From: Escherichia coli
Lineage (GTDB): Bacteria > Pseudomonadota > Gammaproteobacteria > Enterobacterales > Enterobacteriaceae
Assembly: GCF_045037415.1 (NCBI RefSeq)
Contig: NZ_CP173438.1
DNA length: 64,000 nucleotides
Reading direction: 5' to 3' (one strand)
Shown: positions 62,368-64,000 of the stretch, piece after piece
Layout: every line of letters begins with the position of its first letter
Position numbering within the stretch: the stretch's first letter is position 1
The notes under the pieces: model-generated
What the model saw: the letters and a program-made list of their open reading frames with translations, nothing else
The model's database searches: none
Told to the model about the DNA's origin: nothing
Translations under genes and position numbers: made by a program

Positions 62368-63699
62368 TTAACCCAAATCCGCCATCAACACTTTGGATTT
62401 ACGCTGGTAGTTGTACAACTGCTTTTTGCTCTCGGGTAGTAAATCAATATCCACTGGGGTAAATCCACGTTCCTGGAACCAGTGAATACTGCGCGTGGTC
62501 AGCACAAACAATTTGCTTAAGCCGCTCTGCTTCGCCTGAGCGGCAATGCGTTCCAGCAGAACCTCGCCCCGTGATGAACTGCGGTAATCCGGGTGAACTG
62601 CCACACAGGCCATTTCCCCAATCTTCTCTTCCGGGAACGGATAGAGCGCGGCGCAGGCAATAGTCGTGTTATCGCGCTGAATAATGGTGAATTTGTCGAT
62701 TTCCATCTCCAGCTGCTCGCGAGAACGGCGTACCAGAATACCTTGTTGCTCCAGCGGGCGAATCAACTCCAGAATACCGCCAATATCGTTGATTGTTGCG
62801 CGACGAATCTGCTCGGCGCTTTCCATCACAATCTGCGTACCGATACCGTCGCGTGAGAACAACTCTTGCAATAGCGCGCCATCTTCCTGATAACTGATTA
62901 AATGACAGCGACGCACGCCGCTGCGGCAGGCTTTCACTGCGCCACGCAAAAAGCGCACCGTACCGGAGTTGTAATCGCCTTTCTCTTCCTGGGCTTCTAC
63001 CCGCGTTTGCGCTTCGTTAGGGAAAAGTTCGGAGACAATATCACCGTCGTCATTAGTGACGCCCTGGGAAGAGCAAAAACCAATCATTTTTTCAGCTTTC
63101 AGTTTGATGGCCAGTTGAGTGGCAATCTCTTCCGAGGTCAGATTAAAGCTCTCGCCAGTGACCGAAACAGCGACCGGCCCCATTAGCACTATTGCACCGC
63201 TGTCCAGTTGACGATGGATCGCGTCTTCATCAATCCGCCGGATACGCCCGCTATGACAGTAATCCACGCCGTCATCGACGCCCAGCGGCTGGGCAATAAT
63301 AAAATTACCACTGACGACGTTGATATGCGCGCCCTGCAGCGGTGTGTTATTGAGACTCATCGACAGGCGAGCAGTAATATCCAGTTGCAATGTTCCCGCA
63401 GCCTGCTTCACCAGTTCCAGTGTTTTGGCGTCGGTCACACGTATATTCTTGTGATACAGCGGTTCGTGGTGATGTGCAGCCAGATTTGCGTCGATCTGCG
63501 GACGTGCGCCATAGACCACCACCAGACGGATGCCGAGGCTGTGCAACAACCCGATATCATTAACGATACTGGAGAAATTCTCATGCTCAATGGCTTCACC
63601 GCCGAGCATGATGACAAACGTTTTTCCCCGGTGGGTATTGATATAGGGAACCGAATGGCGGAATCCCTCGACCAGCTCGGTTTTACGTTCCTTTACCAC
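62368..63699 (-). CDS. argA: N-acetylglutamate synthase
   Basis: 443 aa, GTG start; N-terminus [34 protein letters not shown] (kinase-like plus GNAT domains). Confidence 0.96.
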
Positions 63700-63709
63700 G
63701 GTACACCTC

Positions 63710-63748
63710 TTTGCATGATTATTCTAAATTATTGTATTTTTATTCTGT
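63710..63748 (-). promoter_or_regulatory. Tandem ARG boxes (ArgR operator) over the argA promoter
   Basis: Minus strand AGAATAAAAATACA and AGAATAATCATGCA, 21 bp start-to-start; each matches TGAAT-N4-ATTCA at 11-12 of 14. Confidence 0.5.
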
Positions 63749-63930
63749 TTTTTCGCAGGGTGCAAGTGTAAATTTTATGCGGGAGCGAGTTTTTTATCAG
63801 TAATACCGTGAATATAAAAAGAATGTTTACCGTTTTATAGATGACAGATTATGCGTCTTTCGCTAAAGTTTCCGGTCAAATTGGTCGTTTACTTGTTACA
63901 CAGCTTAGATTTCTTTTGCTCGGGAGAGGC

Positions 63931-64000
63931 ATGTCAGGATCCAACACTGCAATCAGCCGTCGTCGTTTACTGCAAGGCGCGGGTGCCATGTGGCTATTGA
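63931..64000 (+). CDS. amiC: N-acetylmuramoyl-L-alanine amidase AmiC, first 23 codons only (Tat signal)
   Basis: [23 protein letters not shown] twin-arginine signal; runs off window end. Confidence 0.8.

Follow-up and report, generated by a model that had tools for sequence, protein, structure and literature searches.

The 39 bp at 63710-63748, upstream of argA, almost certainly constitute the ArgR operator of this E. coli gene and would mediate the arginine-dependent occlusion of its promoter. As an operator, the element is real, strongly conserved, and already known from K-12 as the argA operator of the ArgR regulon, and it is a classical case of end-product repression at the first enzyme of arginine biosynthesis. 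The main value of the present analysis lies in the correct annotation, with the operator locatable to the base from the sequence alone. Positions refer to the window, i.e., the whole stretch of 64,000 nucleotides that was analyzed.

The window is a piece of the E. coli chromosome with recD and argA on the minus strand and amiC, in divergent orientation, on the plus strand, and the gene order at the locus is identical in K-12 (recD-argA/amiC). The coding sequence of argA (N-acetylglutamate synthase) extends over 62368-63699 on the minus strand and starts with GTG at 63699-63697. The gene had been named in an earlier note on this DNA, and the assignment is confirmed by the ORF list, by the RefSeq annotation of 100% identical DNA as argA, and by a match of the ORF to the NCBIfam equivalog NF003641 (755 bits, cut-off 344). 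ORF data and RefSeq annotation likewise bear out that amiC, with its ATG at 63931 on the plus strand, is the divergent neighbor, and that the spacer between the two genes comprises 63700-63930 (231 bp, 64.5% A+T). The 501 bp from 63500 to 64000 are 100% identical in several complete E. coli genomes, with the flanks annotated as argA and amiC in RefSeq, and the stretch was found in 5425 of 5426 complete E. coli genomes. An AGAGG Shine-Dalgarno sequence for argA, conserved among the orthologs, can be read at 63706-63710 (minus strand), 6 nt before the GTG, where it adjoins the proximal of two ARG boxes. An ORF at 63851-64000 was rejected as spurious, as its start precedes the one inferred for amiC and it overlaps this gene in a different frame. 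A terminator-like hairpin at 63873-63887 was set aside, as it was not conserved in the spacer alignment. An Rfam scan of 63400-64000 gave zero matches at E ≤ 1, and hence no known structured RNA in the argA-amiC spacer.

On the argA strand, the operator region reads ACAGAATAAAAATACAAT (the distal, promoter-side ARG box, 63731-63748), AAT (the 3-bp inter-box spacer, 63728-63730), TTAGAATAATCATGCAAA (the proximal box, 63710-63727), GAGGTGTACC and GTG, all on the minus strand. The proximal box is separated from the GTG by 10 nt, and the boxes occupy positions -11 to -49 relative to the start codon, in agreement with their claimed location just upstream of argA. The earlier note had also described two TGAAT-N4-ATTCA-like cores 21 bp apart, and its coordinates are right to the base. 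The 14-bp core at 63712-63725 (plus strand TGCATGATTATTCT) matches TGAAT-W4-ATTCA in 11 of 14 positions and the one at 63733-63746 (plus strand TGTATTTTTATTCT) in 12 of 14, and the two are exactly 21 bp apart, a centre-to-centre register of two helical turns. The 18+3+18 layout is that of the canonical E. coli ArgR site (PMC6640053, PMC6245113, PMC4381063).

We learned the weight matrix for ARG boxes from other operators rather than from a preset consensus. Control regions were taken from ten other K-12 arginine-regulon units (carAB, argF, artJ, artP, argECBH, argG, argR, argD, argI, and hisJ), and a Gibbs sampler was run for a de novo 39-bp motif with argA left out. The resulting motif consisted of paired palindromes of the pattern T3 G4 A6 T7 / A12 T13 C15 A16, which agrees with the positions published as most conserved in ARG boxes (PMC6640053). 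A symmetrised 18-bp matrix was then derived from nine operators; the argR site reported by the Gibbs sampler (only 6.9 bits) was excluded as weak.

With this leave-argA-out matrix, the argA box pair scored 30.6 bits and ranked first among 63,962 window positions, with the runner-up at 9.9 bits. The distal and proximal boxes were also the best and second best single boxes in the 64-kb window (15.4 and 15.2 bits, respectively). The pair score falls within the range of the training operators (25-41 bits). When the offset between boxes was varied from 15 to 27 bp, the 21-bp register that results from the 3-bp spacer was best, followed by 17 bp with 21.8 bits. The matrix scan found no further ARG-like boxes upstream in the spacer, where the best position, 63784, reached 2.7 bits.

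Intergenic DNA with 64.5% A+T could in principle resemble ARG boxes by chance, and 173 of 20,000 dinucleotide-preserving shuffles of the spacer did contain a single box scoring 15.2 bits or more. However, the pair score of 30.6 bits was reached in none of the 20,000 shuffles (maximum 24.8 bits), and the position of the pair is conserved in all 117 orthologs. Chance similarity can therefore be dismissed with near certainty as the origin of the boxes.

To collect the orthologs, one genome per species was scanned with a degenerate nucleotide pattern encoding the N-terminal peptide of ArgA; the pattern does not touch the operator. In this way, 120 loci from Enterobacterales were retrieved (among them Escherichia, Salmonella, Citrobacter, Enterobacter, Serratia, Yersinia, Photorhabdus, Xenorhabdus, Dickeya, Pectobacterium, Hafnia, Edwardsiella, and Budvicia), 117 of them with enough upstream sequence. 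All 117 were scored in the 21-bp register, and in every one the best pair within 400 nt lay 6-15 nt before the argA start, with 21.8-35.0 bits. The reading of the two boxes as an ArgR operator, made earlier from the window alone, is thus upheld by the fit to the motif, by the canonical spacing and by conservation in all of these orthologs.

Among the 117 loci, 82 distinct operators were found. Conservation per position correlated with the information content of the matrix over the entire operator (Spearman 0.61, p = 8e-5) and in the proximal box alone (Spearman 0.74, p = 4e-4), which was variable at positions that are uninformative in the matrix and fixed at informative ones. The substitutions that actually occurred left a mean score of 30.3 bits, compared to 18.0 ± 7.7 bits for equal numbers of random substitutions. 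In the distal box, positions 4-16 were almost invariant, with positions 8-11 fixed as AAAA. This is more than the ArgR matrix demands, and argues for a second, overlapping constraint, presumably the -10 element of the argA promoter.

The excess conservation of the distal box, including the fixed AAAA, would also be expected if the region were maintained for promoter, leader, and ribosome-binding functions only, the likeness to ARG boxes being incidental and without any action of ArgR. The pattern in the proximal box, where conservation tracks the ArgR matrix, speaks against this, as does the fact that the two boxes outscore every other single site in the 64 kb and stand in the 21-bp register. 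Moreover, the published occupancy of the site is gone in an argR deletion (PMC8282354). Taken together, these data make conservation independent of ArgR extremely improbable.

An alignment of 100 distinct orthologous spacers contained five blocks of at least 85% identity. Two are the ARG-box cores, and the others are CTTGC at 63766-63762 (argA strand), ATGACAG at 63841-63847 (plus strand), and TAAAGTTT at 63864-63871 (plus strand). The CTTGC block contains most of a putative -35 hexamer of argA, TTGCAC (63760-63765, minus strand), whose spacing to TAAAAA (63737-63742, minus strand) would fit a promoter with its -10 element inside the distal ARG box, either TAAAAA itself (a 4-of-6 match) or AAAAAT one base downstream. 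TTGCnn was found 16-17 nt upstream of TAAAAA in 111 of 117 orthologs, and TAAAAAT, 17 nt from TTGCAC in the window, was present in 113 of 117. We infer that transcription of argA would start at about 63729-63731, with a leader of approximately 30 nt. On this numbering, the distal box would extend from about -18 to -1 and the proximal box from about +4 to +21. The conserved -35/-10 geometry thus supports the previous suggestion that the operator overlaps the argA promoter, in that the operator would cover both the predicted -10 element and the predicted start site. Upstream of the putative -35 hexamer, at about -41 to -47, there is a conserved AAAATTT (63770-63776, minus strand), which fits a proximal UP-element subsite.

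A consensus scan of the spacer returned another sequence as its sole promoter-like match on the minus strand, CTGATA-17-TAAAAT at 63800-63772, the TAAAAT part of which is moderately conserved. Were this the main argA promoter, the boxes would remain a genuine ArgR operator, placed at about +17 to +55, with the repressor serving as a roadblock or acting on the leader instead of keeping polymerase off the promoter. The -35 element of the upstream match, however, has an identity of only ~0.3-0.5 among the orthologs, compared to the 111 of 117 loci with TTGCnn 16-17 nt upstream of TAAAAA, and the AAAATTT at 63776-63770 is equally well explained as an UP element of the downstream promoter. In addition, ArgR is reportedly an inefficient roadblock to polymerase during elongation, and operators of biosynthetic genes overlap the promoter (PMC6640053). 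Because its -35 element is not conserved, we consider the upstream match the less likely argA promoter, and a main promoter in this position improbable.

The proposed action of the operator, with the downstream promoter as the target, follows what is known about ArgR. A single ArgR hexamer loaded with arginine occupies a pair of 18-bp ARG boxes, 3 bp apart, in a cooperative manner; it touches the helix on one face, bends the DNA, and competes with RNA polymerase at biosynthetic promoters (PMC6245113, PMC6640053, PMC4381063). When arginine is abundant, a single arginine-loaded hexamer would accordingly bind both argA boxes cooperatively; with their centres 21 bp apart, both boxes would be exposed on the same side of the helix. 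The operator would span the putative -10 element (distal box), the putative start site, and the first ~20 transcribed bases (proximal box). Since the boxes cover the predicted -10 element and start site, the bound repressor would be expected to exclude RNA polymerase, and the synthesis of N-acetylglutamate synthase would be turned off. This arrangement suggests that repression works by steric exclusion and not in some other way.

Experimental data for the K-12 gene have been published. In IPOD-HR profiles, the known ArgR sites in front of argA are strongly occupied; the occupancy is weaker in arginine-poor conditions and lost on deletion of argR (PMC8282354). A K-12 argA promoter reporter is subject to ArgR-dependent repression and follows ArgR activity during arginine depletion (PMC3658269). 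Arginine-dependent binding of ArgR and repression are expected for the allele of the window by analogy with the near-identical K-12 site. The argR gene itself lies outside the window; of 5426 complete E. coli genomes, 5425 carry it at an identity of at least 95%. In engineered arginine overproducers, ARG boxes serve to titrate ArgR (PMC13393283).

The K-12 argA operator shares with the window not only the locus and the gene order, but also the 10-nt gap to the GTG and the 18+3+18 layout, and 37 of 39 operator bases are identical. The window differs by two SNPs in the boxes, both C to A (distal position 17 and proximal position 3), and by more SNPs elsewhere in the spacer. The matrix scores for the distal and proximal boxes are 15.4 + 15.2 bits in the window versus 15.3 + 14.0 bits in K-12. 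As the score of the window is no lower than that of K-12, a functional difference between the two alleles is not predicted.

The operators of argF, argI, argECBH, argD, argG, and carAB P2 are also tandem imperfect palindromes with a 3-bp spacer near the promoter, and score 30-41 bits compared to 30.6 bits for argA. In each of the two argA boxes, position 3 of one half-site is A or C, where the consensus is T. The location relative to the promoter is also different from some other operators: the argA boxes would cover the -10 element and the early transcribed region, whereas it is the -35 element in the case of carAB P2, artJ, and artP (PMC6640053, PMC6245113).

Besides the argA promoter, the spacer was claimed to hold the amiC promoter. 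A conserved candidate, ATGACA-17 nt-TAAAGT at 63841-63869 (plus strand), was indeed found by the consensus scan, separate from the operator. No other columns of the spacer are as well conserved as its two hexamers, which have identities of 0.98 and 0.95 versus a mean of 0.58 in the 100 orthologs, and the implied amiC leader would be ~55 nt long. The footprint across species separates the two promoters inside their common spacer, and the argA and amiC promoters appear to be arranged back to back without overlap. In all 112 Enterobacterales loci with enough flanking sequence, amiC was divergent from argA. The spacer was mostly 215-250 bp long, even though about half of its columns are poorly conserved.

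Operator-bound ArgR might also affect the amiC promoter, either by way of the ~93-bp wrapped or bent ArgR complexes that have been seen by ChIP-exo or by way of the constant length of the ~230-bp spacer. If true, arginine supply would be tied to the expression of a cell-division amidase. The geometry argues against such coupling, as the boxes end at 63748 and the candidate amiC -35 hexamer starts at 63841, ~93-95 bp beyond the distal box. We consider an influence of ArgR on amiC very unlikely.

Directly upstream of the candidate amiC -35 hexamer, a direct repeat resembling a CpxR site (CTATAAAACGGTAAA, 63826-63840, minus strand) has two mismatches to GTAAA-N5-GTAAA and is moderately conserved (0.70). 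It was rejected as a CpxR box for amiC, since one match with two mismatches is not significant against a chance expectation of ~0.5 per spacer. Activation of amiC by Cpx has been described for Salmonella, but not clearly for E. coli (PMC9604234, PMC9600279).

Within E. coli, the 101 bp from 63700 to 63800 are rather polymorphic. Only 518 of 5425 complete genomes have alleles within one mismatch of the window over this region (at least 99% identity), and 1407 of 5425 show 90-95% identity over the same 101 bp. Most strains have C at proximal-box position 3, where the window has A. We sampled seven alleles, including K-12. In six of them the operator was in register, with 29.3-31.1 bits. The seventh, from Z0117EC0098 (NZ_CP098195.1), is altered at about 75 nt upstream of argA: the distal box lacks one A (TAAAAAT to TAAAAT) and the interval between the boxes carries a 9-bp duplication, so that the best pair in the 21-bp register has only 9.7 bits. 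This operator allele is unique (1 of 5425 genomes), and may reflect either a naturally occurring argA variant with a defective operator or an error of assembly.
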